A stretch of DNA of 64,000 nucleotides from Candidatus Coatesbacteria bacterium (GTDB lineage Bacteria > JAFGND01). The position numbers and the translations under genes were made by a program. The stretch covers positions 15,889 through 79,888 of the forward strand of contig JAFGND010000025.1 of NCBI GenBank assembly GCA_016927185.1. The letters run 5' to 3'. This document shows, one piece after another, positions 7,825-34,449 of this stretch (position 1 is the first letter of the stretch; every line of letters begins with the position of its first letter). Below the pieces are notes generated by a model. That model was not told the origin of the DNA. It saw nothing but the letters and a program-made list of their open reading frames with translations, and did no database searches.

Positions 7825-7837
7825 TTCTACTCCTTGA

Positions 7838-8413: not shown

Positions 8414-8590
8414 TTATGTCAAGAAAAAATAATATAAATCTTAATATCGCTCCCTGGAAATCATGGACTAGCTGAAACCCTCACCCCTCTCCTATGAGGT
8501 AGAGAGGGAAGATAATATCTCAATAAAAATAGTCATCCTGAACGAAACATTTCTCGCCAAGAATTTGATTAAAGGGTTTGATACAATATA

Positions 8591-9787: not shown

Positions 9788-10077
9788 AAAAATCTCCCCT
9801 TAAAAATTACTTGATTACTTTGAATTTAATCTTTCTAAGCCTTTGCATTAATTATTATTCACTAATTGTTTTTTTAGCATGGTTTATTAACAATATGAGT
9901 TGTTGCATTATGTTTAATTCAGAAATAGTATGTAAGATGCTATTTTATGTCAATAGAAAAATCCTTGAGGTTTAATCTAGCCCCTAGACATCATGAACTG
10001 AGTCTGTGAGGAAAATCATTTGTAACAGATCAAAACCAGGACTATAAAAATACTTTATAGATTCTCAAGGAAGCATC

Positions 10078-18432: not shown

Positions 18433-21400
18433 TTAACTTGTAAATCCGAATTTCTTGTCTTTTCCTAATAGCATTGTTGATAGTTTTTCAAAATCAGCTG
18501 ACATTTCAGGGAATTTTTCAGATATTCTCGAAATGGAAATCTCTTCCTTCAACTCCTTAAGCCATGTTCTTGCAGCAGGTTGCATTTTCATTATTATTTC
18601 CCTGAAGAGACTTACCGGAATTACCTGCTTGCCTTTGTTCTGATTGATACTATCCTGAAAAACCTTTTGTATGCATAATTGGTAAGCATTATCCATTTCT
18701 GCAAATGAAAAGCCAATGCTTGCATTAATTGTCTCAGTAACATCCTGCCCTTGAAACTTGCTTTCAAGATATTCCTTTCTTTCACTTTCGTCTGGAAGAG
18801 AGAAATAAACAAAACGATCAATTCTACCTGTAGAAAGAAGTGAAGATGAAACCATATGAGGATTTTTTGTAGTCCCTATAAAGTAAACAAATGTATTTTT
18901 TCCCTGTAGTGCATCAAGTTCAAGCTGGAACTGAGCAATCAATTCATTTGTCGTTTGCTTCTGCCATAATATATCAATGTCATCTACCAGAATCAAGGAA
19001 GGAGACTGTTCTATTGCGGTATTAAATAAATTAGCAATGTTCTTCGAAGCATTACCACTCCATAAATCTAGAAGCTCACTTCCCTTGACTGGTATCAAGG
19101 ATAAATCAGCTTCTCCTGCCAGACAATATGCACAAAAGCTCTTACCTGTACCTGGTGCTCCATAAAACAGGAAGCCTCTTGATAAATCAAGTCCATAATT
19201 CCTGGCTAGCTCCTGTTCTTTCATTGGAAGCAGTACTTCCTGTTTCAGTATTTCTTTCACGGATTTCAATCCGATCATGGTCTTGAAATTCCTGTCAGTT
19301 ACTTTCAATATCTGGAATTTTGCTAATCCTCTTTGCTGATCACTTCCTGCATATATCATTTTCTTGTGTATTCTAGCCTGGTACTTAAGCTCGCATGCGA
19401 GTTCCTGGAATTTATCATTTAGTGATGAAGGATCAATAGCAGCAGAACACGATTCGAACCATCCCCATAATTTGGGTTTTACCAGATTTATTGAATTCTT
19501 GACTGCCTCGAAATCAACAGGTGGGGCTTGAATCCTTGCTGCTGTACTGTCAGGGCGAGTATTCTCTTTTATGACCTTTGCAAATTGAGATTGCGAAGCA
19601 AGATAACATATATTTTCTATTTCCGCACCACTGTAACCTTCAGTCAATTTAGATAATGTCTTCCATTCTTCGTCAGTCAATTGAGGTGGCAATTTGAATT
19701 TATGTTTGAACATATCCAGCCTGGCTTGAATGGTCGGTACCCCAATGTAAATCAATCTGTCAATCCTTCCGGGTCTCAATATTGCCTCATCGATTGCCCA
19801 TGGTCTATTGCTTGCACCTATCACCATTATTTCCTCATCATTCGAGCCGAAACCATCAAGTTCAACGAGGAGCTGGTTTACCATTTCCAGATGAACGCTA
19901 GTTTGTGACCTGTCAACAGATTCTCTCTTACCGCAGAGAATATCAAGCTCATCAAGAAAAACAACGCATGGTGTATGATTCCCTGCAAACTTGAAAAGAT
20001 TCTGTATGTTTCTTGCACCATTTCCAACCCACATATCAACTATTTCTGATACTTTCACATTGATAAGTCCTGCCTGGAATCTTGCTGAAATCGCTTTTGC
20101 AAGCATAGTCTTGCCACATCCCGGAGGACCATAAAGCAGGATTCCCCTGTTTGCCTTCAAGCCATAATGCCTTGCTAGTTGAGGATATTCAAGAGGTGCA
20201 AATATTTCCTGATAAAGAGTTTCTTTTACATCTGCAAGCCCCATTACATCATTGAATGTCACATCATTGACTCGTGAGAGAGAGAAGATTGAAAGCCCTC
20301 TTGACGCACTTCCACTTGATACAGGCATTTTTTTCTTCTGTCTGTAATACCTTTCCATTTCTTCCTTTAATGCCATATATTTACTTTCCAGAACCTCAGA
20401 TTCTATATTTCTGTAGCAATCATCAAACCAGTCTTCCAGCGTAGGCTGGATTTCTTTCTGTGCTTCAAGAAGAAGTGGCATATCTATCAATATCTCTTTT
20501 TCCTGCTGTACAGCTGTTGATAGTGCCTTGCTTGCAGCAATATCAGTTATATTCTGGATTTCCGCTCCACTGTATTGATCTGTTTCCTGTGCCAGCCTCC
20601 TGTAATCAATATTATCTGAAATTGGTCTGTTTTCAAGATTAAGTCTGAATATCTCTGTTCTCATATCTTCATCAGGAACACCTACATAGAACATTCTGTC
20701 CAGTCTTCCTGGTCTTAGTGCTGCTGGATCCAGAGCCCATGGTCTGTTAGTAGCACCAACAATAAGTATTTGCCCCTCGCTTCTGCTGAGATTACCCATT
20801 TCTGCCAGAAATTGATTAACAGCTTTTCTTTGTTCTTCATGCATATTGACTGCCCTGTTAGTAAGGAAGGCATCCAGTTCATCAAGCAGGATCAGAGAAG
20901 GAGCATTTTCTTTTGCAAATTTAAACAGATTAGTGATATTTATTGCTGAGGTTCCCAGCCATACTCCTGAAATATCTGATGATTTCACATCGATGAAATT
21001 CATGCCTGTTTCACCACAAAGTGCTTGCATTATCAGAGATTTTCCACATCCCGGAGGACCATAAAGCAGGATTCCCCTGGTTAGATCAATCTGATAACGC
21101 TTAGCCTGAGCTGGATAACGAAAGGGGAGTACTACTTCCTCATAGAGTCTTTTCTTAAGGTCTTCGAAACCAGCTATCCTTGAAAAGTCCATTCCAGTGA
21201 TTTTCTGGACAGTGAATGTGGATAAACCTTTCTTCAGATCTTCATCATTTAGATACATTTCCTTATGAAAGGTCTGAATAGTCTGAGTGAAGAAACTTCT
21301 TACTAGTGAAACATCCTCTCCTTCCATGAAATTAAGAGAATCAAGTTCTTCTTTTGAAGAGGAGGAATTAATAAAAGCTCTGATTCTTTCTTTAGCAAGA

Positions 21401-22224
21401 TCAGTCTCTATATTAAGCTTATCTGCCCATTTGTAAGTATAAAGATTTATGAAGTGGACTTCATAAACCTCTTTTAAATCAGCGAGAAGTCTGGGTTGTT
21501 CCAGATTTATTGCAGCCGCTTCATTAATAAGCTCCTTGGCTTTTGGAGAGGAAAAAGGTAACATTGCAAGAGCAAAAGCTTCATAAAAATAGAAATTACG
21601 ATTTATTATATTTTCATCATACTTCATGGCAATATCAATACAATTCTTGTAGTCTTTGTCTATCTCGCTTTTCTGGAATCTATTTCTCATTGAATCTATT
21701 GTATATTTGAAATAAAGACATCTTACTGTTTCCCTTGCAATTCTTATATTCTTGGAATTGGGAAGTCCCTGAGAAAGGAACTCCAAACCGAGTTTTGCCC
21801 CGAAATCATAACCATTGAAGCGTTCCTGCATATCAAGCTCTTCATATAAACCAAGAAGCCTGTAACCTAAAACACCCATTTCGGGATAAATGAAACTTTT
21901 CTTGAATTCACCATGCATTTTCCTTAAGGCAATCAAAGCCTCTCCAAATATCTTCTTGGAATAGGTATCCTTTTCGAAATTGGCAAGCCCTCTTACTGCC
22001 TTGTCTTCTTCAATGAAGTTGTTCAAGGCATCATCTGAATAAAAAGTTGCATAATATATTATTACCTGAAGTAACCAGTTCTCAGGAAGAGAGTAATAGT
22101 ATTTGAAAGCTAACTGGAAAGCCATCATCAAGTTGTCTCCCTCGAAAAGGCAATTTATGGCTTCCCGCAAATCATTTTCAAATTGCTTTCTATCAAACTT
22201 TGCAGCAGGTGGTGTTGGTGACAT
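18433..22224 (-). CDS. Triple-AAA+ ATPase (three tandem classic-clade AAA modules) with ~330-aa helical N-terminal domain
   Basis: Walker A in three places ('ILLYGPPGCGKS', 'ILLYGPPGCGKT', 'FLFYGAPGTGKS'). Each is followed by Walker B (LILLDELD / VVFLDELD / LILVDDID) and second-region Arg ('RPGRLDR', 'RPGRIDR', 'STGRIDR'). Confidence 0.8.
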   Translation of the reverse strand: MSPTPPAAKFDRKQFENDLREAINCLFEGDNLMMAFQLAFKYYYSLPENWLLQVIIYYATFYSDDALNNFIEEDKAVRGLANFEKDTYSKKIFGEALIALRKMHGEFKKSFIYPEMGVLGYRLLGLYEELDMQERFNGYDFGAKLGLEFLSQGLPNSKNIRIARETVRCLYFKYTIDSMRNRFQKSEIDKDYKNCIDIAMKYDENIINRNFYFYEAFALAMLPFSSPKAKELINEAAAINLEQPRLLADLKEVYEVHFINLYTYKWADKLNIETDLAKERIRAFINSSSSKEELDSLNFMEGEDVSLVRSFFTQTIQTFHKEMYLNDEDLKKGLSTFTVQKITGMDFSRIAGFEDLKKRLYEEVVLPFRYPAQAKRYQIDLTRGILLYGPPGCGKSLIMQALCGETGMNFIDVKSSDISGVWLGTSAINITNLFKFAKENAPSLILLDELDAFLTNRAVNMHEEQRKAVNQFLAEMGNLSRSEGQILIVGATNRPWALDPAALRPGRLDRMFYVGVPDEDMRTEIFRLNLENRPISDNIDYRRLAQETDQYSGAEIQNITDIAASKALSTAVQQEKEILIDMPLLLEAQKEIQPTLEDWFDDCYRNIESEVLESKYMALKEEMERYYRQKKKMPVSSGSASRGLSIFSLSRVNDVTFNDVMGLADVKETLYQEIFAPLEYPQLARHYGLKANRGILLYGPPGCGKTMLAKAISARFQAGLINVKVSEIVDMWVGNGARNIQNLFKFAGNHTPCVVFLDELDILCGKRESVDRSQTSVHLEMVNQLLVELDGFGSNDEEIMVIGASNRPWAIDEAILRPGRIDRLIYIGVPTIQARLDMFKHKFKLPPQLTDEEWKTLSKLTEGYSGAEIENICYLASQSQFAKVIKENTRPDSTAARIQAPPVDFEAVKNSINLVKPKLWGWFESCSAAIDPSSLNDKFQELACELKYQARIHKKMIYAGSDQQRGLAKFQILKVTDRNFKTMIGLKSVKEILKQEVLLPMKEQELARNYGLDLSRGFLFYGAPGTGKSFCAYCLAGEADLSLIPVKGSELLDLWSGNASKNIANLFNTAIEQSPSLILVDDIDILWQKQTTNELIAQFQLELDALQGKNTFVYFIGTTKNPHMVSSSLLSTGRIDRFVYFSLPDESERKEYLESKFQGQDVTETINASIGFSFAEMDNAYQLCIQKVFQDSINQNKGKQVIPVSLFREIIMKMQPAARTWLKELKEEISISRISEKFPEMSADFEKLSTMLLGKDKKFGFTS
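20114..20149 (-). repeat. 36-nt exact direct repeat (copy 2) inside the AAA gene, encoding 'RGILLYGPPGCG' of module 2
   Basis: Identical to 21044-21079. Confidence 0.8.
21044..21079 (-). repeat. 36-nt exact direct repeat (copy 1) inside the AAA gene, encoding 'RGILLYGPPGCG' of module 1
   Basis: Identical to 20114-20149. Confidence 0.8.
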
Positions 22225-22239: not shown

Positions 22240-23595
22240 CTATTTGGTGGTTGAAATCCTTTTTTCCATCAAACTGTCAAATCTTTTTGAGTAATTCTGT
22301 AATAATGCAGGTAATTTAGACAACTCTATATCATTCAGTGGAGGAAAAGAAATCAACCTGTTTTTCAGTGGATTAACATTCCTTCCTCCAACTTTTATCC
22401 TGTAATCCAGGTGAGGACCTGTACTTAATCCTGTTGAACCGACATATCCAATAACTCTTCCTGTTTTTACGAATGTGCCTTTGTTTACTCCTTTTGCAAA
22501 ACTGTTCAAATGTCCATAATAAGTGACAACTCCTGCCATATGCTTTATTGCAATCATGTTTCCGTATCCTCCACTCCTTCCCTTCATGACAACAGTACCT
22601 GATGAAGCTGCTCGAACTGGAGTTCCTTTTTTTGCAACAAAGTCTATTGCAAGGTGAGGTCTGTATCTCTTTAGAATAGGATGCATTCTTCTAATTCTAT
22701 AATTACTGGATATCCTTTTGAATCTTAACGGTATTATTAATGCAATTCTGTGAAGGCACTTTCCTGTTTCAGTATAATACAGACCTTCCCCTGGATCCTT
22801 TTCAAGAATAGGAAGAGAATCATCTTCAGCTACAACTTCTTCCTGTTTCAATGATGAAGGATAAAAAGCCAACTGGTATGTCCTGTCAGTTGTTTCTGCC
22901 TTGCTCCACCATAACTGCTTGAATTCTCTTCTTCCTCCGGGTAAAACCTGTTCAGTTATCAGGAATGAAAAGACAGTCCCTTTTTCTCTGCATTTCTTTG
23001 TTCCTATATATCTTGCCCAGAATTGTATTGCTTGCTTGATAAAAGCTGGATTATTATATTTCTCGGCAAGCATTGGCTGCATTCTTGTTGAGAGAGTGCA
23101 AACCAAGGCTCTTTCCTGAAGCCCTTCCTTCATTGTTACGCACTGCATAAGCCATCCATGAGAAGTCCTGTAACCCCGGTATATCTCCTTGCTTTCTCTT
23201 TGAAGTTCAAGACTGTCAATTGATCCATCAGCATTCTTTGAAAATAATGTTATTTTATCTCCCTTCTGAGATATTCCAACATCCTTGTTCTCCTTGAAAG
23301 CTTCAACCAGGCTATCAATCCTGTTCTCAGGTTGTCCTATTCTCAGAAAAAAGTCGTTCCATGTCTCCCTTGTTTTCACTTCAATTAATTCTGGATAGTA
23401 ACCTGAAGGTTTAATTTTTTCCTCCACCTTCACAGGTTCTTCTTTTTTTTCGCTTTTCCTTGATATTTCAATGAATAATCCTCTTACACTTATAAAAACA
23501 AGGAAAATACCAATAATAAGAATAAAAAGAAGTCCATAAGGCAAGAATCTGTTCCAAATGATGAGGTTTTTCCATATATCCTTAAGGAAATTCAT
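22240..23595 (-). CDS. Membrane-anchored M23/LytM-family metallopeptidase
   Basis: N-terminal TM helix. C-terminal 'GYVGSTGLSTGPHLDYRIKVGGRNVNPL' is the M23 HxH/HLH zinc motif region. Overlaps the upstream gene by 4 nt (atga). Confidence 0.75.
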   Translation of the reverse strand: MNFLKDIWKNLIIWNRFLPYGLLFILIIGIFLVFISVRGLFIEISRKSEKKEEPVKVEEKIKPSGYYPELIEVKTRETWNDFFLRIGQPENRIDSLVEAFKENKDVGISQKGDKITLFSKNADGSIDSLELQRESKEIYRGYRTSHGWLMQCVTMKEGLQERALVCTLSTRMQPMLAEKYNNPAFIKQAIQFWARYIGTKKCREKGTVFSFLITEQVLPGGRREFKQLWWSKAETTDRTYQLAFYPSSLKQEEVVAEDDSLPILEKDPGEGLYYTETGKCLHRIALIIPLRFKRISSNYRIRRMHPILKRYRPHLAIDFVAKKGTPVRAASSGTVVMKGRSGGYGNMIAIKHMAGVVTYYGHLNSFAKGVNKGTFVKTGRVIGYVGSTGLSTGPHLDYRIKVGGRNVNPLKNRLISFPPLNDIELSKLPALLQNYSKRFDSLMEKRISTTK

Positions 23596-25739
23596 TTTAC
23601 TGTTTCTTCTTTTCCTGCAATCATTTCTATAAGCCGTGATATCTGTTTTGAATACTTCGGATCATTTATCAGGAAGTTATAGTATATGGCTTTCATCAAG
23701 TTTTCATTAGCACTTTTTTCCATTTGTAGCATATATTGTGACCATGCCAGGACAGTGTATGCTGGTGTCCATTTACTCCTATGCTTTATTATTTCAGAAG
23801 CAATCTCTGCTGATAATAAATACTGCTTATTGATTAGAGCCAGTTCTGCATGAATAAGCTTAATTGAAGTTAGATCAGGATGCTTGCTAGCGTAAGATGA
23901 CATGAGTTTATATGAATCAAGATAATTTTTTTTCTTGAAAAGCAAACAGGCCTTTACAAACTCTGACTCTTCTGGATTATTCCTGAGTTTTTTGGAGATA
24001 TTTTTTAAAAGAAAAAGCCTTATCTTGCCTACCATGAATTGAGACAATACAAGCAAAGAATCAGCATTTTCAAGACTCATAAGGTACTTGCCTTCTTCTG
24101 TCTTCGGATCAACAAGGAAATAATCAACTTCCGAAACACTATTGAAGTCGCTTATTCCATTTTCATGGAGAACGAATCTTGTCTTGTTACTTAATCCAGG
24201 CAGCGCAGACCAGGAAGCACCCAACTTCTTGTTTCCAACAATCTCTGCAACCTCCCTGCTTGTAGCAAGTTGAGAAAACTGCTGATTGTTATTATTAGCA
24301 GAGATATGAATGACAAGGAAATATGAATTCACCAGGAAAAGAAATCCAGCGAAATATTTGACATAGTTCAGGTTGAGATTGAGTTTTTCTTTTCTCATGA
24401 ACATGAGAATCAATATCGCTGCAATCAAGGATATCAAATCGTGTAAATAGGCTGGTTTAGTGAATTTCAATATCATCATATCCTCGTCATGCATATACAT
24501 CATATATCTTTGTGGAATGAACTCACCAGCAGCAAAAGTGAATCTCAAGAACGTGTAGCAGACAATTGCTAGTATTGGCAAGAGAATCAAGTAATGTAAT
24601 AATGAGAAGTCTGGGTTCTCGAAAATATTCTTTTTCTTCATCACTTTCCACATTTCGATGATTACTATTGGCATGGGAAGCAGAAGCATCATTTCATATC
24701 TTAATGGACAATATGTATTCAGGGAAAGATAGCATGGTATAAGTAAAAGCATCAGGATACTCCATTTTACATATAATCTCAGATTAGCTCCATATTGTTT
24801 TACTGAATAAATTGATGCAATACCTAAAGCCAGATAGCCAAGAATCATTTGAGCAGGAGCTTGCTGGGCAAGTAAAGAAAAAGTTCCTATTCTTCTTAAG
24901 CCATCAATATAATCATATATGGAAGTTATCATTGGTTGGGCTTTTGTTATAGTCAAATATGCATTTTTCCATTCCTGGTAATCAGGCAAAATAAGTATAA
25001 AAAGATATAGAATGAATGTAGCAAATGCTCCAGATAGAAAAAAGACTAACCTGTTCCTTGCTTCTCTTCTACCATTAAATGGCAACAGGAAATCCCATAG
25101 CAAAGAGATGAAAGTCACTAATACTATACTTGAAGCTGCAGCTTTTATTCCCATTGCAGCAAGAACCATCAATGACCCTCCCAGAGATATCAAGTATTTA
25201 TTATTCTTTAGTATAAGGAGCAATCCTGTCATTACTAAGGCAAACATCGGAAATTCAAGAAGCGCTAGCTTGCCATAAGCATAGAATGGTATGCAGAGAA
25301 CGAATATCAAGCAGCCTATAAAAGAATGAAGTTCATCGTTTTCCTTTCTCAATATTGAAAAATAGATGAATATCAGTCCTAATGCAGAGAGAATGCTTAT
25401 CAATCTAGCCGAGAAGAAAGAGACACCTATAACTTTGAAAACAGAATACTGAATTATTGAAAGAAATGATGTCAGATAGAATCTTGGCCAATTCCCCTCA
25501 GGTTTCCATGAGCCGAAATATATCTTGTTGATCGCAGGTGCTGCCCAGAAAGCTTCATCAGAGAAAGGTCCTGCAGACCAGCTCATCCCGAGCAGGGGAT
25601 CCCCCTCTGTTTCATGAAATAAAAGGAAAGCAGATATAATAAGCAGAATAATGAAACATATCTTGACTTTCGGGATTCGTATTTTTCGTTCCTTTACTGT
25701 ACTTGATGAACGCAATGTTTTTGATTTTTTCTTTGCCAT
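23592..25739 (-). CDS. GT-C fold glycosyltransferase (PMT_2 / family 39/83-like) with C-terminal TPR region; TMTC-like architecture
   Basis: About 12 TM helices. First periplasmic loop 'FSDEAFWAAPAINKIYFGSWKPEGNWPRFYLTSF…FSARLISILSALGLIFIYF' fits the PMT_2/ArnT loop-1 'DE' pattern. Last ~150 aa are soluble and TPR-like. Confidence 0.55.
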   Translation of the reverse strand: MAKKKSKTLRSSSTVKERKIRIPKVKICFIILLIISAFLLFHETEGDPLLGMSWSAGPFSDEAFWAAPAINKIYFGSWKPEGNWPRFYLTSFLSIIQYSVFKVIGVSFFSARLISILSALGLIFIYFSILRKENDELHSFIGCLIFVLCIPFYAYGKLALLEFPMFALVMTGLLLILKNNKYLISLGGSLMVLAAMGIKAAASSIVLVTFISLLWDFLLPFNGRREARNRLVFFLSGAFATFILYLFILILPDYQEWKNAYLTITKAQPMITSIYDYIDGLRRIGTFSLLAQQAPAQMILGYLALGIASIYSVKQYGANLRLYVKWSILMLLLIPCYLSLNTYCPLRYEMMLLLPMPIVIIEMWKVMKKKNIFENPDFSLLHYLILLPILAIVCYTFLRFTFAAGEFIPQRYMMYMHDEDMMILKFTKPAYLHDLISLIAAILILMFMRKEKLNLNLNYVKYFAGFLFLVNSYFLVIHISANNNNQQFSQLATSREVAEIVGNKKLGASWSALPGLSNKTRFVLHENGISDFNSVSEVDYFLVDPKTEEGKYLMSLENADSLLVLSQFMVGKIRLFLLKNISKKLRNNPEESEFVKACLLFKKKNYLDSYKLMSSYASKHPDLTSIKLIHAELALINKQYLLSAEIASEIIKHRSKWTPAYTVLAWSQYMLQMEKSANENLMKAIYYNFLINDPKYSKQISRLIEMIAGKEETVK

Positions 25740-25831
25740 TTTTTATTACCCAATCTCATACTCATTATAGAAAAGTCAAAATAAATGTGATTTGACTTGA
25801 CCAAAGCATGAAAAATATATCCCTTGATTAA

Positions 25832-27094
25832 GTGAAAAGGAATGCATTTGTTTTTCTGGCTTTTATAATGATCGCCTGTTCAAGCATGTCTAGCAAAGCC
25901 AGAAATGAAGATCAAAAAACTGACACCAAAGAAGAAATCTCAGAGGAAATGAAAAAAGAAGGTATCCGGAAAGTGCTTACTGGAATAGATGTTCTTGAAA
26001 GAGATTCTTTCAAGATTCTCAAAGGCAAGAGAATAGGTTTGATAACAAATCATTCCGCCCAAAATAGTAATGGAATTAGTACAGTTGAACTGCTTTCCAG
26101 GAATACAAGACTTGTGAAATTGTTCGCTCCAGAACATGGTATAGAAGGAAGTCATGGAAAACCTTTCCCTGGTTCCTGGAATTATGATTATGGTATTCCT
26201 GTCATAAGTTTATACTCAAAGTCAAAAAAACCTTCATCTTCTGATCTGGACGATATTGATGCTTTAGTATTCGATATCCAATCTGCTGGAGCAAGATATT
26301 ATACCTATATAACCACAATGGGATATTGTATGGAAGCAGCTGCAATGCATAACAAGGAATTCATTGTCCTGGACAGACCTAATCCTGCAGGAGGAAATAA
26401 AGTAAGTGGAGCTGTTCCCCTGAAAACAGAATGTAAAAGCTTCATCTGCTATTATTCACTTGCAACTCAGCATGGTATGACTATTGGAGAACTTGCTAAT
26501 ATGTTCAAGGAGGAAAAGAAGTTAAGTCTTGAACTGACAGTCATTCAAATGAAAGGATGGAGTAGAAGCATGACCTATGACAAAACAGGTCTTTCATATA
26601 TACCACCTTCTCCCAATCTCAAGAGACAGGAATCAATTATACCTTATTGCATACTTGGCTTTCTTGAGCATTCAAATATTTCGGTAGGCAGGGGAACTGA
26701 ATATCCGTTTGAAATCTATGGAGCTCCTTTTATTGATGAAAAGAATATGGTAGAAGAACTCAACAACTTCAGATTGAAAGGTGTTGAATTCAAGGAAGCG
26801 ACTTTTATTCCAGAAGGAAGTTTTTACAAAGGAAAACTGTGCAAAGGTTTCAGGATTCATATTTCTGATAAATCTGAATACGAGGGAAATGAAATTGCAA
26901 TGGCAGTATTGGTAACTCTTCACAAGCTGAATAAACATAATTTCAAGCCTTCAAATGCTTTTAACTCAGCATTTGGCTCAAGAAAGATTTCGAATCTGGT
27001 CTTCAGGGATACTGACATAAAGATACTGAAACATCTATTAATGAAACAGAATGAGACCTTTCTTGGCAGGAGAAAAAAATACTTGTTATATTGA
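25832..27094 (+). CDS. namZ: DUF1343-family exo-beta-N-acetylmuramidase (NamZ-like) lipoprotein
   Basis: Lipobox 'IACSS'. Motifs 'LFAPEHG', 'LVFDIQSAGARYYTYITTM', 'IVLDRPNPAGG', 'HGMTIGELA', 'PPSPN', 'VGRGTEYPFE' match the DUF1343 family consensus. Confidence 0.7.
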   Translation: MKRNAFVFLAFIMIACSSMSSKARNEDQKTDTKEEISEEMKKEGIRKVLTGIDVLERDSFKILKGKRIGLITNHSAQNSNGISTVELLSRNTRLVKLFAPEHGIEGSHGKPFPGSWNYDYGIPVISLYSKSKKPSSSDLDDIDALVFDIQSAGARYYTYITTMGYCMEAAAMHNKEFIVLDRPNPAGGNKVSGAVPLKTECKSFICYYSLATQHGMTIGELANMFKEEKKLSLELTVIQMKGWSRSMTYDKTGLSYIPPSPNLKRQESIIPYCILGFLEHSNISVGRGTEYPFEIYGAPFIDEKNMVEELNNFRLKGVEFKEATFIPEGSFYKGKLCKGFRIHISDKSEYEGNEIAMAVLVTLHKLNKHNFKPSNAFNSAFGSRKISNLVFRDTDIKILKHLLMKQNETFLGRRKKYLLY

Positions 27095-27189
27095 GCCTTG
27101 AACTGAATTTTTTTATTTACTTAATATGTCATGAAAATGATATTGTCATGGATAATTAATTAGATATTGTTTGGGGATAAAGGAGAGAT

Positions 27190-28407
27190 ATGGAAAGAAA
27201 TATTTATAAGAAAAGAAGAGATGCTTTATTCAAGCAGCTCCCCAAAGATTCTGTTGCTATAATTCCTTCATTATCGGGTAATCCAGAAAATCAGCCTTAT
27301 GATGCCAGTTTCTATTATCTGACTGGATTAATGCTTAATAATGCAATACTTGTAATGACAAAAGAGAAAAGCGTTGAGAAAGAAACCATATACAGGATGA
27401 AGATAGATCCTGTCTTATCTTTATGGGTATGCTCTCCTCCACCAGATGATGAGCTGAGGGCTAAAAGTGGTATAAAGGACCTGAAGGATTTTAGCTTAGA
27501 TGCTTTATTAGATACATTATACAATGAAGCTGCTAAAGGCATGAAGGATTTCTATCTTCACTATACCCCAAAGAAGCCAAATCTTCCATCTTCTTTATCA
27601 CAAGCACTTGTTGAGAAAATAAGAAGGTATTTGCCTCATATAAACTTGATATGGCTTTCTCCCATAATTTACGAGCTGAGAAGAGTCAAAACTCCTCAAG
27701 AAGTAACTTTATTCAAGGAAGCAATACGCATTACAAAGAATGCAATTGTAAATGTTTTCTCTAGAAGATCGATATATCAGAATGAATGCCAGGTTTATGC
27801 AGATTATAGTGCTTCATTGATAAATGAACTGAACAGAAAAAGTGGCTTCAATGTAATTGTTGCAGCAGGGAAGAATGCAACAATACTGCATTATGATAAC
27901 AATAACTCCCCTATACATAATAATTCAATGGTCTTGATTGATGCAGGATGTGACTATGAAGGTTATAACAGTGATATAACCAGATGTTTTCCAAGAGGGA
28001 AACTATTCCCTGCAAAAGCAAAGCACATATATGAAGCAGTCTTGACAGCACAGGAGCTTATAATAAAATCAATCAAGCCCGGAGTTTCACTTCAGGAGAT
28101 AAATGATAATGCAAAAGATATTATTTTCAGGGTTTACAAAGATGCCAGGATAGTGAAAACACTAGATGAATTAAGCAAGGTCTATTATCATGGTGCAAGT
28201 CACTATTTGGGGCTAGAAGTCCACGATGTTGGTATAAGATCCAGACTTCTGAAACCTGGTTGTGTCCTGACCGTTGAACCTGGTTGTTATGTAGAAAAGC
28301 TTGGAATTGGGATAAGGATTGAAGATGATATCCTTGTCACTTCCTCGGGATATGAAAACCTTTCCTTTTCAATTCCGAAGAAGATAAAGGAGATTGAAGC
28401 ATTATAG
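27190..28407 (+). CDS. pepP: Xaa-Pro aminopeptidase (M24B)
   Basis: 'HGASHYLGLEVHDVG' and 'VLTVEPGCY' are the M24 pita-bread metal-ligand motifs. Confidence 0.75.
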   Translation: MERNIYKKRRDALFKQLPKDSVAIIPSLSGNPENQPYDASFYYLTGLMLNNAILVMTKEKSVEKETIYRMKIDPVLSLWVCSPPPDDELRAKSGIKDLKDFSLDALLDTLYNEAAKGMKDFYLHYTPKKPNLPSSLSQALVEKIRRYLPHINLIWLSPIIYELRRVKTPQEVTLFKEAIRITKNAIVNVFSRRSIYQNECQVYADYSASLINELNRKSGFNVIVAAGKNATILHYDNNNSPIHNNSMVLIDAGCDYEGYNSDITRCFPRGKLFPAKAKHIYEAVLTAQELIIKSIKPGVSLQEINDNAKDIIFRVYKDARIVKTLDELSKVYYHGASHYLGLEVHDVGIRSRLLKPGCVLTVEPGCYVEKLGIGIRIEDDILVTSSGYENLSFSIPKKIKEIEAL

Positions 28408-28410
28408 AAA

Positions 28411-29412
28411 ATGCAATTTAACATAAAACGTGCTTTTTCATTGATAGATTCTTTTACGAGAATAAAAGTTGCAGTTGTTGGTGATCTGATAGCTGATATT
28501 TACTGGAAAGGTACTTTAACAAGATTTTCAAGAGAAGCTCCTGTGCCAATTGTCAAGCTTGATGATGAGATATTAGTTCCCGGAGGAGCTGCCAATACAT
28601 CTGCTAATATAGCAAGCTTGAGTGGAAAATCCTTGTTGATTGGCAGATTTGGCAAGGATAACGAGGGAGACAGGCTAAGGGAAAATCTGAATAAAATAAA
28701 TGGATTGAGCGTTTATCCATTATTCAAGGACAACTTCAAAACCATAACAAAAATCAGGATAAAAGCTGGTAGCTTTCATACAAGACCTGCACAAATCCTC
28801 AGGATAGACAAGGAAAATGCTGAAATTCAGCTAACCGAAGAAGAAAATGAGGAAATAGTGACTGCCTTGAAAGGATGCGACGCAATAATTCTAAGCGATT
28901 ATGGTTATGGTAGTGCTTCCCCTGACTTGCTTTCATATATCAAGAAAAGAACAGGAAATCTGGTTATAATTTCAGTTGACTCAAGATACAGGATTAATGA
29001 ATTCATGGGTGCCAGTCTCTTGACTCCCAACGAAGAGGAAGCTGCTTATGCTTTGAAAGAAGAAAATATCCTTGATAATGATATTATTGCAGCTGGGAAA
29101 AAACTTCTCAGGATTTCTTCTGCACATAACCTGATAATTACAAGAGGACCTTTCGGCATGGCATATTTCTCGAAAAAAACCAGTGAAAAAATCCCTATTT
29201 GCGGAACTACTGATATTGTTGATAATACCGGGGCAGGGGACACTGTAATAGCAGCGGCAACTTTGTCACTAGCTTGTGGTGCTTCTCTGCGTGAGGCTGC
29301 AATAATTGCCAATTGTGCGGCTTCTGTTTCAGTAATGCAGGAAGGTGCAGTAGCAGTAAAACCAACAGTATTAAAAGATGCAGTTGCCCTGTTTTTGAAA
29401 CAGTATTTGTAA
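28411..29412 (+). CDS. D-glycero-beta-D-manno-heptose-7-phosphate kinase (HldE/RfaE kinase domain only; PfkB family)
   Basis: 'KVAVVGDLIADIYWKGTLTRFSREAPVPIV' matches the HldE domain-I N-terminus. 'DNTGAGDT' is the PfkB signature. No adenylyltransferase domain is attached. Confidence 0.7.
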   Translation: MQFNIKRAFSLIDSFTRIKVAVVGDLIADIYWKGTLTRFSREAPVPIVKLDDEILVPGGAANTSANIASLSGKSLLIGRFGKDNEGDRLRENLNKINGLSVYPLFKDNFKTITKIRIKAGSFHTRPAQILRIDKENAEIQLTEEENEEIVTALKGCDAIILSDYGYGSASPDLLSYIKKRTGNLVIISVDSRYRINEFMGASLLTPNEEEAAYALKEENILDNDIIAAGKKLLRISSAHNLIITRGPFGMAYFSKKTSEKIPICGTTDIVDNTGAGDTVIAAATLSLACGASLREAAIIANCAASVSVMQEGAVAVKPTVLKDAVALFLKQYL

Positions 29413-29421
29413 GGATTTCAA

Positions 29422-31635
29422 ATGCAAAAAGGATTGACAGCAGAATATAAAACCTCTTTTTATTTTGCTATTTCATTATCAGTAATATGTTTCTTTTTTT
29501 TTCAGTTTCTCATGGCAGATGATATTACATGGACCAACTGGGGTGAAGATGGAGGAGATTTTCTGGCATGTGCATCTATTCTTGGTATTCCTCACCCAAC
29601 TAGTTATCCATTTTATACACTGCTTCTAAAAGCATTTTTTCTGATATTTCCTTTTGGAAACATAGGCTTCAGGGGAAATTTGCTTTCATCAGTTTTTGCA
29701 TCATCAGGAATATACTTCTTTTATATGATTACATCAAGACTGCTTTCTTTCATTCCGCAGGTGAAGAAAGACAGAAAAGGAGTAATTTATGGATTGCCTT
29801 TGCTTGTATGTATCATACTTGCATTAAGCAGAATTTTCTTGAGCCAGGCAATAATTACTGAAGTATATTCCCTGAATGCACTAATCTTTTTAATGAGTAT
29901 TCATTTCCTTTTAAAATGGGTGTTTGAAAAGAAAACCAATTACTTGATATTTGTATTTTATTTACTGGGATTGGGTTTCAGCCACCATGGCAGCATAATT
30001 TTCTTCATCCCTCTTCTATTGTCTGTTTTGATAAGATTTAAAAAAAGATTAAATGCAAGAATTGCTTTTTTTTCAATATTCATATGGTTGATTGGTCTTA
30101 CTCCTTATCTATATGATCCATTAAGAGCAATCCAGAATCCTCATTTATCGTGGGGTACACCATATTGCTTTTCTAAATTCTATTGGATTATAACTGCTTC
30201 TCAATACAGGTACAGGATGTTCTCAAGACCATTTATGGAAAGTCTAAGAAAATTCCGTTCAAGTTATCATATTGAGCAACAGATTGGATACCTGGGAGTT
30301 TTCATATTCATCTGGACAGCAATTACTTTACTGTCAAGATTCAAGAAAGCAGGGAGAATACGAAGTAATTTCGGGATAATAGTCATGGGATTGTCTTTAT
30401 CATTTCTTGCTAATTTGATTTATTCATTCAATTACAATATTGCGGATATAAATGCTTATTATATACCAGGTTACATTATTGCTTGTATTTTTCTCTGTCT
30501 TGGAACAGGAATACTCATCAAGATATGGCAGGAGAGCTCTATTTTTTATCCAAAATCGTATTTACCTTTGGTAATTACACTGGTTTTATTGACTGCTCCA
30601 CTAATCCTGAACATCAGAAAATGCAATAGCAGGACAAAACAAGATGCAAAGGAATTTACAACAGAAGTATTCAATGCAGCAAAACCAAATGGAGTAATTC
30701 TTAGTGAATATGATGGCAGAACATTCGGGTTATGGTACAAAAGATATGGTCCCTTGAAAGATAAATCCCAGGTTTTCATTATTTATAAGTATCTTTTTAT
30801 ATGGGACTGGTATTTGGAGCATCTTCCAAAAGTAGCTAGCAGGCTTTTATATCCACCAAAATCACCTATTGTTGATGCATATTTATGTGATCTGATAACT
30901 CTTAACATTGGGAGATTGCCTTTGTATATGGTGCGGGAAGATCCAGTCATAAAAACGAACTGGGATCTTGTTAGATTATATGATGCAAAAATGCCTTTAT
31001 ATGAAATAAAAGAAAAAGCCAGACTTCCTGAGGTCAAGTATTCTGCAAAAGAAGATACAATGTTTATTGATATCAGTACATTTGCAAACAGCTGCTATAG
31101 TCAGGATCCATTCAGAATCGGTGATGTAAGTGGTAAACCTAATCATTTCATTGGGCTGGATGAAGGAGAATATAATTATCAAGGCATTCCATTCAAATTC
31201 ATGAAAGCTGTCACTGGCAAGGAGAATAAATTCAACTGCATTTCGACTTGCTTTTTATCAAGAACATCATTTAAAATTCCTCTTGTCCAGAAGAGAAGCA
31301 AGCATCTGGCTTTTGCATTGACTGGAGGTGCTATTGCAAACTATAAAGGAGCTGTCTTGAAACTCAAGGTAATATATAAAGATGGTATGAATGATGACTT
31401 TGTTCTTTACAGTTGCAAAGATATATATGAATATGGATTTAAAAAGTATGGAGCAGAAGCTCCTCCTCTTGAAAAAATAATATGGCAAAATAAAAAGGGA
31501 GCGTTTATTACTGGTTGTGAAATAGATTTGGACAATGAAAGAATTCCAGAGAAACTTGTTATAAGAAATGCTGGAATTGCAAACAACGCAGGAGTTTATC
31601 CAGGAGTGATTATCTTTGCAGTCACACAATATTGA
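29422..31635 (+). CDS. DUF2723-family polytopic membrane protein (TMEM260-like putative GT-C glycosyltransferase)
   Basis: N-terminal 'WGEDGGDFLACASILGIPHPTSYPFYTLL' resembles the DUF2723 signature. About 11 TM helices followed by a ~330-aa soluble C-terminal domain. Confidence 0.55.
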   Translation: MQKGLTAEYKTSFYFAISLSVICFFFFQFLMADDITWTNWGEDGGDFLACASILGIPHPTSYPFYTLLLKAFFLIFPFGNIGFRGNLLSSVFASSGIYFFYMITSRLLSFIPQVKKDRKGVIYGLPLLVCIILALSRIFLSQAIITEVYSLNALIFLMSIHFLLKWVFEKKTNYLIFVFYLLGLGFSHHGSIIFFIPLLLSVLIRFKKRLNARIAFFSIFIWLIGLTPYLYDPLRAIQNPHLSWGTPYCFSKFYWIITASQYRYRMFSRPFMESLRKFRSSYHIEQQIGYLGVFIFIWTAITLLSRFKKAGRIRSNFGIIVMGLSLSFLANLIYSFNYNIADINAYYIPGYIIACIFLCLGTGILIKIWQESSIFYPKSYLPLVITLVLLTAPLILNIRKCNSRTKQDAKEFTTEVFNAAKPNGVILSEYDGRTFGLWYKRYGPLKDKSQVFIIYKYLFIWDWYLEHLPKVASRLLYPPKSPIVDAYLCDLITLNIGRLPLYMVREDPVIKTNWDLVRLYDAKMPLYEIKEKARLPEVKYSAKEDTMFIDISTFANSCYSQDPFRIGDVSGKPNHFIGLDEGEYNYQGIPFKFMKAVTGKENKFNCISTCFLSRTSFKIPLVQKRSKHLAFALTGGAIANYKGAVLKLKVIYKDGMNDDFVLYSCKDIYEYGFKKYGAEAPPLEKIIWQNKKGAFITGCEIDLDNERIPEKLVIRNAGIANNAGVYPGVIIFAVTQY

Positions 31636-32254
31636 TAATTTAATACCTCAGAGAAGATATGGTCAGAAGAAGCATCTTCCTGGTGTACTGATTGGAGTAG
31701 TATTATTGATCATAATCCTGCTTCTTATTGGTTATTTCTTAATAAGAAAAAGATCTTCAACAGAAGAATCAAATGAAAGCAAGAAAGAGGAAAGAAGCAA
31801 GCAAAATGAATCTGTAAAATCTTTGGATAAGAAGAAAGAAGACTATTTGAAAAAAGCATCTTCACCTCTTCCAGCTAAATCTTCAGAACCAATATTCAAT
31901 GTAAAAGTACTTGAGAATTTCTCGAATATTATCAAAATTGAACTTCTGAATGGAACCAAGGTGGTTGGTGTTGTCGGTCGTTTAACCCCGATTGTAAGAA
32001 GGCATGCTCATGGAAAGATTGATATTCTTGCAGTAGGGAACACTCATTCACCTGAATATGTTTACAAGGAAAGTATGGTCATCGACAGGATTGGAAATCC
32101 AGAATATGCAAAAGTGATAGCTGATTTTTTTGGAATCAAGCGTGTTATAACTCAGGGAAACAAGGAACTGCTTGTCGATGTTACAGTCATAATTGGAGAA
32201 GATTTAATCAATATATACCAGAATAATGTTCTCTGGTATCAAACAATCAACTAG
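31616..32254 (+). CDS. Hypothetical single-pass membrane protein
   Basis: One TM (GVLIGVVLLIIILLLIGYFLI), then a K/E/S-rich linker and a ~120-aa C-terminal domain. Overlaps the previous gene by 20 nt. Confidence 0.4.
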   Translation: MQSHNIDNLIPQRRYGQKKHLPGVLIGVVLLIIILLLIGYFLIRKRSSTEESNESKKEERSKQNESVKSLDKKKEDYLKKASSPLPAKSSEPIFNVKVLENFSNIIKIELLNGTKVVGVVGRLTPIVRRHAHGKIDILAVGNTHSPEYVYKESMVIDRIGNPEYAKVIADFFGIKRVITQGNKELLVDVTVIIGEDLINIYQNNVLWYQTIN

Positions 32255-34449
32255 TCACTCTTGAAAAGAATAGATTCGCTGTAATAAGATTCTATAGGTA
32301 CATCACCTTTCATTGCAGGCTTGAATCTATATCTTTTCGCAGCAGATACTGCTTCTGAATCACAAGCAGAATTGCCACTTGATTTCTGGACTTTAACGTC
32401 AGTTACTCTTCCATCTACTCCTATTGTCAATGTAAGCTGAGTAGTACCAGTAAATTTGGTTTTAGAGGCACTAGCAGGATAGCTTGCTTTTGACTTCGAT
32501 ATTAGCTCAGCAGGAACAAGTTTGCCTTTCTTTGCAGGTGTTTCTTTTTTATCTGCCTTTGTAACTTCAACCTTTTTGGTCACGTCTTTTTTCTCTACTT
32601 TATCGGGTTCAGATTTCTCTGTTTTCTTAGCTACTTCAGTTTCTTTTTTCTGAGCTTTCATTGTAACGTTTCTTGTTACGGATTTTCCGTCCTTTACTTC
32701 AATAGCTATGCTTGTTTCTTCATAACCATCAGCTTTTAGAACAAATACCCTTTTTCCTGCTGCAAATTCCTTTGTAAATGTTGTACTGCCAACAAGCTGT
32801 CCCCCTACATAAACTGTTGCAGAAGGAGTTGAGCTTATTGTAACTGTTCCTTTTCCTGAGACGAATTCCACTTCTATATTTTTCGTTTCTTCTGATTTGA
32901 CAACAACAACATCTTCAAAACTCATATCACCATGCTTGGCTTCAAACTTGTATTCACCTGGTGAAAGCTCTATTTTACTAATGTCGGGGAATTTTCCCTT
33001 GGATTCTCCATTAATGAGAATCTCAGCTCCATCTTTGCATTTTGTTATCATTATACTGCCTTTGGCAGCGGCAACATCCTTTACTTTTTCTTCACCTTTT
33101 GTTTCCTCTTCCTTGACTACTTCTTCCTTCTTGGCGGTTTCCTCTGGCTTTTTTGAAAGCATGGGTTTGAAAACGAATACTACAAGAAGCACTATTACAA
33201 TTAATGCACCTGCTGCCCCCGCAATAATTCCAACTGGCAGTCCCTTTTTTCCTTCTTCTTTCGGTTTTGTTTCAATTGGTTTTTCTTCCTTCGGTGGTTT
33301 TTGAGGTTCAGTAGCAATTTTAGGTTTTTCTTCTGCTTTCTTTTCCTTTAAAGGTTCTGCTTTCGCTTTTTCAGTTCCTTTCTTTTTCTGAATTACTTCC
33401 TTTGGTTTAACGGTCTCAGCAGAAACTGGTTTCTTCTCTGCTACCTTTGGTTCTTCTTTTGGTTTCAGGATTTCTTTTGGTTCTTCATGAGGAACTGCTT
33501 TTGGTTTTACGGTTTCCCTTGCTTTTACATCTATCTTTTTCTCTTCCTTGATCACAGGTTTTACTTCAGCAACCTTTTTAGCTTTTTTCTCTGCAGGAGC
33601 TGATTCTTTATGAGGATATTCTATAATCTCTGCTTCGTCGACAGTCCTGGAAACAAGCCTTTCTTCTTTTTCTTTCTGCATTTTTTCAATCTTCTCAGCA
33701 AATTCTGCTCCATCTTCCTCTTTTACAACTTCAATGAATGCTGATTTTACTGCTTCTTTTTCCTCGAGAGTAGCTTGTTTCTGTACTTTCTCCTTTTTCA
33801 ATTCAGTAATCTTGACTTCCTCTTCCTTTTTCTTTCTCTCTTCCTCTATTTCGTCAATTGTTCTCAATGTCTCGTGGGAACCAATAGTATCATTTATTGC
33901 AGTAGCAATGTCTTCAGGTGTAGGAAGATGATCTGAAGTCTCTTCTACCAGATCCTTGTATTCACTTTCTAGCTCATTTTCTGGAATTACTGCACTATCT
34001 CCAAGTTCAGTTCTTAACAGGGCAAGTTTCTGTGCTATCTCCTTATTACTTGGATTATACTTAAGAGCTGCCTCGAAGTTTGATATGGCTTTACCAATTT
34101 CCTTATCTTTTAAAGCTTTTTCAGCACCCTTGATATATCTATCTACAACTAGTTCTCTCTTGAATTTATTTAGTAATCTCTTTACTTTAAGATTTTCCGG
34201 ATCTATTTCAAGAATTTTCTGCAGTTCCTCTATTGCCTGTTTCTTATCTCCTTCAACAAGAAAGCGTTGAGCATTTTCATAATAAGTTCTGATATTAAGC
34301 TCACCTTCGATTTTATCAAGCAATGATTTTACTCTTTCATTAGATGGATCAATCTTCAAGATTTCACGTAATTTGCTTACTGCAAGAGGTCTGTCTTTCT
34401 TGCCAAGAGCTTCCATTGCTTCTCTCAGTAAAAGTTTTATATCAGCCAT
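32251..34449 (-). CDS. TonB-family protein with atypical architecture: N-terminal TPR repeats, K/E/P-rich linker, TM, two PEGA-like beta-sandwich domains, TonB_C domain
   Basis: C-terminal 'GTTQLTLTIGVDGRVTDVKVQKSSGNSACDSEAVSAAKRYRFKPAMKGDVPIES' fits TonB_C. 'KPKEEPKVAEKKPV…' is a Pro/Lys linker. TM 'GIIAGAAGALIVIVLLVVFVF'. N-terminal TPR-like repeats. Confidence 0.65.
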   Translation of the reverse strand: MADIKLLLREAMEALGKKDRPLAVSKLREILKIDPSNERVKSLLDKIEGELNIRTYYENAQRFLVEGDKKQAIEELQKILEIDPENLKVKRLLNKFKRELVVDRYIKGAEKALKDKEIGKAISNFEAALKYNPSNKEIAQKLALLRTELGDSAVIPENELESEYKDLVEETSDHLPTPEDIATAINDTIGSHETLRTIDEIEEERKKKEEEVKITELKKEKVQKQATLEEKEAVKSAFIEVVKEEDGAEFAEKIEKMQKEKEERLVSRTVDEAEIIEYPHKESAPAEKKAKKVAEVKPVIKEEKKIDVKARETVKPKAVPHEEPKEILKPKEEPKVAEKKPVSAETVKPKEVIQKKKGTEKAKAEPLKEKKAEEKPKIATEPQKPPKEEKPIETKPKEEGKKGLPVGIIAGAAGALIVIVLLVVFVFKPMLSKKPEETAKKEEVVKEEETKGEEKVKDVAAAKGSIMITKCKDGAEILINGESKGKFPDISKIELSPGEYKFEAKHGDMSFEDVVVVKSEETKNIEVEFVSGKGTVTISSTPSATVYVGGQLVGSTTFTKEFAAGKRVFVLKADGYEETSIAIEVKDGKSVTRNVTMKAQKKETEVAKKTEKSEPDKVEKKDVTKKVEVTKADKKETPAKKGKLVPAELISKSKASYPASASKTKFTGTTQLTLTIGVDGRVTDVKVQKSSGNSACDSEAVSAAKRYRFKPAMKGDVPIESYYSESILFKSD

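Follow-up and report, generated by a model that had tools for sequence, protein, structure and literature searches.

A predicted TMEM260-family GT-C enzyme encoded close to a very divergent PMT_2/ArnT-type GT-C in a Candidatus Coatesbacteria genome

Do two membrane glycosyltransferases of the GT-C fold, encoded on opposite strands and 3.7 kb apart in the metagenome-assembled genome (MAG) of a Candidatus Coatesbacteria bacterium, serve one glycosylation system, and do the genes between them take part in it? The question concerns a stretch of 64,000 nucleotides (GenBank assembly GCA_016927185.1, contig JAFGND010000025.1, forward-strand positions 15,889 to 79,888), here called the window and numbered from its first letter. 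An earlier note had read the block at 23592-31635 as a single protein or envelope glycosylation locus, in which a TMTC-like and a TMEM260-like enzyme flank a heptose kinase, a NamZ-type exo-muramidase and PepP. According to the open reading frame (ORF) listing of the window, these five genes lie at the positions and on the strands that the note had given them, the two GT-C genes on opposite strands. To our knowledge, protein O-mannosylation by GT-C enzymes is a eukaryotic process that among bacteria is found essentially only in Actinobacteria (PMT/GT39), and we know of no characterised function for the bacterial branch of either GT-C family discussed here. TMEM260 was reportedly recognised as an O-mannosyltransferase only in 2023. 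Its structure dates from 2026 (bioRxiv 10.64898/2026.03.17.711096), and bacterial homologues appear in the TMEM260 literature only as "distant homologs". Our analysis places both genes in known GT-C families, of which they are new and divergent members. The best explanation, which we hold to be evenly poised, is that two periplasm-facing GT-C enzymes are encoded in divergent operons and possibly act in one envelope-glycosylation pathway, to which the intervening genes are unrelated.

The gene at 29422-31635 (+) encodes a DUF2723/TMEM260-like GT-C of 737 residues. Residues 43-206 of this protein match the TMEM260-like Pfam family PF11028 (88.4 bits, E 6.3e-25; cutoff 24.2), as the DUF2723 assignment in the earlier note had anticipated, and the same domain is present in all 89 homologues found. 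As a single sequence, the protein matched human TMEM260 (PDB entry 9rql) over query residues 41-478 (phmmer E 1.8e-14), and the profile of 48 DUF2723-family sequences that we designate A1 matched chain residues 30-598 of 9rql with an E value of 7.7e-86. In the AlphaFold2 (AF2) model, the predicted local distance difference test (pLDDT) score was 78.5 overall and exceeded 90 over most of the stretch between residues 11 and ~530. The model comprises (i) a transmembrane (TM) GT-C module (residues 1-415; 29422-30666, +) with 11 or so TM helices; (ii) a Rossmann-like domain, predicted to be periplasmic (residues ~416-533; 30667-31020, +), which is a five-stranded α/β fold whose pLDDT exceeds 90 for the most part and drops to about 82 towards the C-terminal end; and (iii) a C-terminal β-rich domain (residues ~534-737; 31021-31632, +), in which pLDDT fell below 50 over residues 535-616 and strands were predicted within residues 579-734. 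This β-rich tail is common only to P0021 and L002, and most homologues of the 737-aa protein are 510-530 aa long. The Foldseek matches of the model were STT3/PglB, ArnT, DPY19 and ALG enzymes, that is, the generic GT-C fold; TMEM260 itself was not listed among them, and the fold search backs the general GT-C fold only.

The structures of human TMEM260 (9rql, 9rqm and 9rqn) revealed an inverting mechanism in which D52 and H67 form a sugar-recognition motif, R264 and Y267 belong to a donor-loading loop, R355 is located in TM helix 10, D441 is the base, and TPR fingers with an Asn ladder recruit the acceptor (bioRxiv 10.64898/2026.03.17.711096). The essential residues D52, H67 and Y267 correspond to D43, H58 and, in a loop aligned with low confidence, Y262 in the TM module of the 737-aa protein, and the catalytic base D441 corresponds to D431 in its Rossmann-like domain. 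Counted over the 48 members of A1, D43 and H58 are each kept in 48/48 sequences, Y262 in 44/48 and D431 in 43/48. Both proteins thus combine a GT-C TM module with a Rossmann-like luminal or periplasmic domain. By contrast, the TPR fingers and Asn ladder of TMEM260 are replaced by the β-rich domain of ~200 residues, and the 737-aa protein is bacterial and periplasmic, with a carrier that is presumably of the undecaprenyl type, whereas that of TMEM260 is dolichyl. Judged by sequence, we assign the 737-aa protein to the TMEM260 family as a true member with its catalytic residues kept. DUF2723 paralogues stand in tandem, two or three together, in L004, L069 and L076, which are WOR-1, Elusimicrobia and Terriglobales genomes, an arrangement that suggests diversified acceptor specificity.

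The second enzyme, which we designate GT-C715, is encoded at 23592-25739 (-) and has 715 residues; remote homology and its AF2 model mark it as an ArnT/PMT_2-type GT-C. It gave zero Pfam and NCBIfam matches (Pfam even at E ≤ 10; NCBIfam none at E ≤ 0.01, including the ArnT models) and no PDB sequence match, and a word-indexed homologue search returned the query protein alone. An exhaustive phmmer search of representative sequences revealed 427 relatives, the closest of which (P0091) shares 37% identity and the others 25-30% over residues ~25-400. In A2, an alignment of GT-C715 with 52 relatives, PMT_2 was matched by 49 of the 53 sequences and PMT by 23, and the A2 profile matched ArnT (5ezm) with an E value of 7.7e-20, at a sequence identity between GT-C715 and ArnT of only ~11%. 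The AF2 model (pLDDT 84.6; predicted TM-score, pTM, 0.86) gave ArnT (5f15 and 5ezm) as the first Foldseek matches, with TMt values of 0.59-0.60. Its TM module (residues 23-484; 24288-25673, -), delimited by AF2 helices and hydropathy and aligned by profile to ArnT residues 58-452, has ~13 helices. The module is followed by a small α/β domain, predicted to be periplasmic (residues 489-585; 23985-24275, -), with strands at residues 505-507, 521-525, 540-543, 562-570 and 573-580, flanking helices and pLDDT of 83-95. The C-terminal tail (residues 589-709; 23613-23975, -) is a TPR-like helical-repeat region whose seven helices form ~3 repeats; Foldseek matched it to the TPR domains 1elw (TMt 0.75), 4cgv and 1a17 with a probability of 1.00, and none of the Pfam TPR models matched it.

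Structural comparison with ArnT (GT83; Cupriavidus metallidurans 5ezm/5f15) shows that the two have in common ~13 TM helices, a first periplasmic loop with a DE motif and, towards the C-terminus, a periplasmic α/β domain, and that GT-C715 differs from ArnT by the low identity given above, the additional TPR-like tail, an operon with M23 and AAA genes, and the lack of an arn operon. The DE motif is D61-E62, and the other family motifs kept in GT-C715 are D47, S55, K199 and Y343-x-P345-x-R347-Y348; because the conserved residues of the family are retained, GT-C715 is probably an active enzyme. Like the eukaryotic TMTC1-4 proteins (GT105), it combines a membrane module of the PMT_2 clan with an extracytoplasmic TPR region after it. 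The TMTCs, however, have 11 TM helices, a DUF1736 loop between TM7 and TM8 and a long luminal TPR array, none of which is seen in GT-C715. The human TMTCs match DUF1736 at E < 1e-30, and ArnT is their nearest solved homologue (PMC7801869). The DUF1736 loop was absent from GT-C715 (at E ≤ 10) and from all 53 A2 sequences, and the name "TMTC-like" in the earlier note therefore does not fit as a family, given this absence, ~13 rather than 11 TM helices and only ~3 TPR-like repeats. The architecture proposed there, PMT_2 plus TPR, was borne out by the A2 profile, AF2 and Foldseek, and the direct Pfam check failed with zero matches. On sequence and model evidence, we regard GT-C715 as a very divergent PMT_2/ArnT-type GT-C with a short TPR-like tail, a tail that, as modelled, would favour a protein acceptor. 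The GT-C fold that had been expected of both proteins is supported by the profile, AF2 and Foldseek evidence alike.

Is the neighbourhood of these two genes more than chance? The pairing survey covered 80 DUF2723 genome loci that were scanned, including some of cultivable carriers related to Ignavibacterium album or Melioribacter roseus, plus look-up loci. The A2 hidden Markov model (HMM) gave two weak matches only among the ORFs of the 80 loci, one of which is itself a DUF2723 protein, and the "no pairing" result taken from it was revised once a Pfam-invisible family, which we designate A3, was found. A second GT-C adjoins DUF2723 in 5/80 scanned loci and in one look-up locus (~6-7% of loci), and other GT-C proteins account for 4/146 immediate neighbours of DUF2723 vs 1/667 non-immediate ORFs in the 80 loci (Fisher p=0.004). 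In L083, which contains the closest DUF2723 homologue, a 722-aa polytopic protein (L083:2313-4481) starts 2 bp after DUF2723; it has no Pfam match and carries the first-loop motif "PLDDSFIYFQYAR". A3 homologues directly follow DUF2723 in L018 (Eisenbacteria, ~9510-11629) and L035 (Acidobacteriota, ~7230-9348), and are convergent to it in L024 (2389-3993) and divergent from it in L030 (Zixibacteriota, 4389-6191). The L030 GT-C ends in Pfam-detectable TPRs, and nadE and ssb separate it from DUF2723, an arrangement much like that in the window. The A3 genes, which adjoin DUF2723 in Eisenbacteria, Acidobacteriota, Zixibacteriota and unclassified bacteria, encode proteins with the motifs PLDDSFIYxQYAR and HRY and a conserved C-terminal soluble domain of ~290 aa. 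The A3 and A2 profiles align over ~410 columns with an hhalign probability of 95-97%, and A3 is therefore another PMT_2-clan GT-C. Orthology of GT-C715 with A3 was rejected (hhalign of the 715-aa pair gave 5% vs A3, E 2.5e-44 vs the PMT_2-type set), and no A3 member was found in the window.

Two further loci place a GT-C next to TMEM260-like genes. In L069 (Elusimicrobia), three tandem DUF2723 genes are followed by a PMT_2/MGDG_synth/Glyco_tran_28_C fusion. The exhaustive phmmer search gave P0092 of L094 (Zixibacteria) as the closest non-orthologous homologue of GT-C715, and L094 has the order TMEM260-like+TPR, GT4, LPG_synthase_TM, P0092, with the first and the last of these encoded on one strand; its TMEM260-like+TPR gene is truncated by the contig end and matches A1 positions 180-519 (E 2.3e-40). 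The commonest neighbours of DUF2723 are heterogeneous: they comprise GlnE, found in 19 loci of the Ignavibacteria type, together with SSB, GT2 and the nusG-rplKAJL-rpoB cluster. The tendency of bacterial TMEM260-like genes to adjoin a second GT-C is thus modest but real. The GT-C pair of the earlier note proved recurrent in the sense that a minority of related loci also have DUF2723 adjacent to a second GT-C that is not its paralogue, and the comparative data lend limited support to the view that the GT-C pair in the window exceeds chance. The nusG-rplK-rplA-rplJ-rplL-rpoB cluster lies just downstream of DUF2723 in L049, L050, L063 and L077 (Bacteroidota and Ignavibacteriota) and is present in the window at 46173-57526, 15-25 kb downstream of DUF2723; this may be what is left of an old neighbourhood in the core genome.

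The block resolves into two transcription units that diverge from a 92-bp intergenic region (25740-25831). On the minus strand, the GT-C715 gene overlaps by 4 bp with the gene of a membrane-anchored M23 peptidoglycan endopeptidase (22240-23595, -; Peptidase_M23 E 1.8e-30; ShyC/MepM-like by NCBIfam; one N-terminal TM helix), and a 15-bp gap separates the latter from the last gene of the operon, which encodes a triple-AAA ATPase of 1263 aa (18433-22224, -; Pfam AAA in three stretches). The plus-strand unit consists of NamZ (25832-27094, +), a 95-bp gap, PepP (27190-28407, +), a 3-bp gap, PfkB (28411-29412, +), a 9-bp gap, DUF2723 and, with a 20-bp overlap, p212 (31616-32254, +), a single-pass membrane protein of 212 aa with one TM helix at residues 25-43 and only a sub-threshold Pfam match to LytR_C (18.9 bits). 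The spacer contains a sigma-70-like match on the minus strand (25791-25764); the counts of the promoter and terminator scan were not above those of shuffled controls and were not used to set the transcription units.

Each unit is conserved in one close relative. L082 (GCA_964396635.1) has the same order of GT-C, M23 and AAA with identities of 37.6%, 55% and 77%, and L089 and L090 have PepP (66.5%), PfkB (53%) and the DUF2723 N-terminus (59.7%) in the same order. The contigs of L082 and of L089/L090 each end inside the region and show one operon each. A metagenome scan anchored on NamZ revealed no close relative; it returned one unrelated high-GC locus with 37% identity and no synteny. The five genes hence make up two divergent operons, each conserved separately, and not one locus. 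The GT-C gene of L082 (L082:1-1848) is truncated by the contig end and has an apparent frameshift near its 5' end, and this orthologue of the GT-C715 gene may be either fast-evolving or decaying. The triple-AAA gene directly follows the M23 gene both in the window and in L082. The modules of the ATPase are of the classical AAA type (CDC48/FtsH clade). Walker A motifs are present at residues 389, 699 and 1022, and a simple motif search gave Walker B "DE" in the first two modules only; the N-terminal region of ~340 aa is helical, and the protein lacks a TM segment. Together these features make an unusual bacterial ATPase architecture.

The genes between the two GT-C genes have other assignments. 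The stand-alone PfkB kinase (333 aa) resembles HldA or domain I of HldE, in agreement with the earlier identification: its best match is TIGR02198, at 242.6 bits, which is below the 345-bit equivalog cutoff (next best, ribokinase, 75 bits; NCBIfam), and its only PDB match is Burkholderia HldA (4e84, E 5.3e-29). Like Burkholderia HldA, it stands alone, whereas E. coli HldE has an HldA-like kinase as domain I; it differs from HldA by its score below the equivalog cutoff, by DUF2723 as the next gene and by the absence of HldC, GmhA, GmhB and GT9 from the window. Stand-alone homologues at ~41% identity number in the thousands. In L091 and L092, where the kinase has ~42% identity, PfkB is followed by CTP_transf_like (HldC), GT9, GT9, GT2 and GT4, and such kinase contexts (two examined) adjoin uppS-cdsA-dxr; in the window and in the 53% relative the next gene is DUF2723, not HldC. 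By sequence, the enzyme is probably a heptose-7-phosphate kinase, and because its relatives sit with HldC and GT9, the comparison points to the split HldA family of ADP-heptose synthesis for the lipopolysaccharide (LPS) core. GT9 enzymes, which are of the GT-B type, take ADP-heptose as their nucleotide sugar; it is not a polyprenyl-phosphate GT-C donor, so that the kinase provides no evidence for a GT-C glycosylation system.

NamZ (420 aa), a predicted exo-β-N-acetylmuramidase, matches NamZ_N (249.1 bits, E 3.3e-74) and NamZ_C (126.9 bits, E 1.5e-36) above both Pfam cutoffs, and its N-terminus, MKRNAFVFLAFIMIAC, has a lipobox-like end and resembles a lipoprotein signal peptide; from its sequence we assign it as a lipoprotein of peptidoglycan turnover or recycling. 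The PepP-like M24 protein (405 aa), an Xaa-Pro aminopeptidase-like protein, contains Peptidase_M24 and AMP_N and scores 203 bits against PRK10879, below the 465-bit cutoff; both identities had been recognised before. A tblastn search with the window neighbours against the 80 DUF2723 loci gave nothing beyond unrelated AAA domains, and a general linkage of NamZ, PepP or PfkB to DUF2723 was rejected for want of tblastn matches in these loci. NamZ, PepP and the kinase are not part of a GT-C glycosylation system.

What would the two enzymes do? GT-C-fold enzymes take their sugar from polyprenyl-phosphate carriers. To judge from an N-terminus that is basic and cytoplasmic, an odd number of TM helices and a soluble domain at the C-terminus, both would face the periplasm. 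The polyprenyl-phosphate-linked sugars that they would use there would be the products of enzymes whose genes lie elsewhere. D43, H58 and Y262 in the membrane module of the 737-aa enzyme may bind the lipid-linked sugar while the Rossmann-like domain positions an extended extracytoplasmic polypeptide, the β-rich tail may stand in for the TPR fingers in acceptor recruitment, and D431 would deprotonate a Ser/Thr hydroxyl for inverting O-glycosyl transfer, as in human TMEM260. GT-C715, which would be co-transcribed with the M23 peptidoglycan endopeptidase and the triple-AAA ATPase, may act on an envelope acceptor in the manner of ArnT or PMT; the TPR-like tail and the M23/AAA partners hint at a protein or cell-wall target, and the contexts of its relatives hint at glycans.

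That both GT-C enzymes are coupled in one envelope-glycosylation pathway is plausible because DUF2723 genes recur beside a second GT-C in related phyla, and we propose it tentatively, at slightly less than even confidence. Several observations weigh against it. A second GT-C is lacking near DUF2723 in 74/80 loci, and in most of the paired loci the partner belongs to a family other than that of GT-C715. Linkage of the two operons is seen in this genome and is not viewable in the contigs of the relatives, and NamZ, PepP, PfkB, M23 and p212 were not found within 8 kb of DUF2723 in the 80 other genomes. Among window ORFs of at least 150 aa, no GT2 polyprenyl-phosphate-sugar synthase and no GtrA or LPG_synthase_TM flippase was found, from which we infer that the genes for a donor synthase and a flippase must lie outside the window. 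With regard to the enzymes themselves, TMEM260 R264 and R355 are unmatched in poorly aligned loops of the 737-aa protein (A259, which is G in 40/48 sequences, and A345, respectively), residues 534-737 have no match to TPR or any other Pfam family, so that the acceptor-binding TPR domain is absent, and in the literature searched DUF2723 is mentioned in the human TMEM260 paper only, with no biochemistry on bacterial DUF2723 proteins. Distant PMT_2 relatives of GT-C715 occur in polysaccharide-type clusters (GT2, GtrA, GT4, Polysacc_synt), which, by analogy, would favour a glycan over a protein as its acceptor.

The same observations bear on the possibility, which we consider doubtful yet worth serious attention, that the adjacency is incidental and that the two enzymes act independently on different targets, with GT-C715 as the GT-C arm of a three-component system modifying LPS, O-antigen or capsule, or as a cell-wall enzyme together with M23 and AAA, and with the DUF2723 enzyme modifying some other target. 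Three-component extracytoplasmic systems such as GtrABC and ArnC/EF/T consist of a polyprenyl-phosphate GT2 synthase, a small flippase and a GT-C (PMC11127046); the window has the GT-C parts only, clusters of this very type surround distant GT-C715 relatives, L088 among them, and L094 has GT4, LPG_synthase_TM and PMT_2 beside a TMEM260-like gene. Independence would be in keeping with the separate divergent operons, each conserved alone, with the large majority of DUF2723 loci devoid of a second GT-C, with distant GT-C715 relatives in a GT2-GT2-GtrA-PMT_2 cluster (as in L088) and in GT4/Polysacc_synt clusters, and with the core-genome character of the window. It is at odds with the enrichment of a second GT-C among the immediate DUF2723 neighbours (p=0.004), with the position of the closest outgroup homologue of GT-C715, which is encoded on the strand of a TMEM260-like gene and two genes away from it, and with the divergent GT-C+TPR/DUF2723 arrangement that is also present in Zixibacteriota.

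Two readings would give the whole block a purpose. The block of 8 kb may be a glycosylation locus for cargo of a type IX secretion system (T9SS) or for an S-layer, in which the sugar would come from the kinase and NamZ and PepP would be accessory, as the earlier note had suggested by analogy with Bacteroidota. The T9SS-type Por_Secre_tail domains on which it leaned are indeed encoded in the window, where two M14 peptidases and a small protein carry them, the PepP-PfkB-DUF2723 order is conserved in one relative, and the evidence for pairing of DUF2723 with a second GT-C applies here too. The organism, however, belongs to Candidatus Coatesbacteria, not Bacteroidota; NamZ, PepP and PfkB never adjoin DUF2723 in the 80 other loci; the kinase family belongs with the HldC and GT9 genes of the LPS core, and ADP-heptose serves GT9 and not GT-C enzymes; no T9SS machinery gene or donor synthase was found in the window; and the known modification of T9SS cargo is C-terminal LPS conjugation together with en-bloc O-glycans, not GT-C mannosylation (PMC10897501). 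We therefore judge this reading highly improbable, and neither the five genes as one glycosylation locus nor the kinase as a part of it could be sustained. Hardly more probable is the reading that GT-C715 is an ArnT-type transferase of lipid A or the LPS core and that the block, with its HldA kinase, serves LPS decoration. Among solved structures, ArnT is matched best in profile as well as in fold, one relative of GT-C715 is annotated as 4-amino-4-deoxy-L-arabinose transferase-like, and the LPS-core heptose kinase gene is 2.7 kb away. The ArnT match nevertheless does not speak for lipid A as the acceptor, since among solved structures ArnT is the closest homologue of the protein-specific TMTCs as well (PMC7801869); moreover, GT-C715 lacks an NCBIfam ArnT match, ArnT has no TPR-like tail, the operon partners of GT-C715 are an M23 peptidase and an AAA ATPase rather than LPS genes, and none of arnA, arnB, arnC, arnD, arnE and arnF was found among window ORFs of at least 150 aa. 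Synteny with arn or other lipid A modification genes, which the note had named as an argument against its own proposal, was accordingly not found at the locus.

The reading that we prefer, two periplasm-facing GT-C enzymes in divergent operons with unrelated genes between them, can be extended to a two-enzyme periplasmic protein O-glycosylation system of diderms in the neighbourhood of the Fibrobacteres-Chlorobi-Bacteroidetes (FCB) group, here Coatesbacteria, Zixibacteria, Eisenbacteria and some Acidobacteriota. The TMEM260-type enzyme would initiate glycosylation on Ser/Thr, a PMT_2-clan GT-C, in many cases one with a TPR tail, would lengthen the glycan or widen the set of targets, and the system would be a counterpart and possible source of metazoan TMEM260/TMTC; in Coatesbacteria it would be tied to the remodelling of the cell wall, by way of the M23/AAA operon, and to the heptose kinase. 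We regard this extension as unlikely.

The rest of the window is core genome, including rpoB/rpoC, nusG, tuf, rpsG, def, asd and pfk. The two M14 carboxypeptidases mentioned above are encoded by tandem paralogues (14578-16338, -; 16397-18163, -), each with CarboxypepD_reg and a T9SS-type Por_Secre_tail, and their sequences are taken to show that T9SS-style sorting signals are present in the Coatesbacteria genome. Convergent with the DUF2723 operon, and overlapping p212 by 4 bp, is a gene (32251-34449, -) for a 732-aa protein that has TPRs at its N-terminus and a TM helix in its centre and that also contains PEGA and TonB C-terminal domains. The gene at 34489-36039 (-) encodes a 516-aa protein with no Pfam match, in which a zinc-ribbon-like motif (CPYC...CPFC) at the N-terminus is accompanied by a single TM helix and by a C-terminal region that is long and charged. 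The window also encodes WD40 β-propeller proteins (8591-9787, -; 61874-63112, +) and an ankyrin-repeat protein (2862-3416, -), both repeat families being more typical of eukaryotes, as well as a 1120-aa ORF (10078-13440, -) with a TTG start, whose product lacks TM segments and matches DUF2460 only weakly and in part. An EcsC-family ORF (4256-5101, -) overlaps an asparaginase ORF (4662-6185, +) by 440 bp, and because the asparaginase domain begins only at residue 189, the true asparaginase start is probably downstream of the listed one.

Among the useful outcomes, the orphan GT-C715 is placed as a GT-C, and the kinase is reassigned to LPS-core synthesis. The lead is a modest one, from an uncultured organism and with the pairing in a minority of genomes. 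A bacterial homologue that has the catalytic base and donor residues of TMEM260, and that is sometimes paired with a second GT-C, offers a lead on the function of DUF2723 proteins and on the origin of the metazoan TMEM260 enzyme. If true, the two-enzyme pathway would be an undescribed bacterial counterpart of metazoan O-mannosylation.

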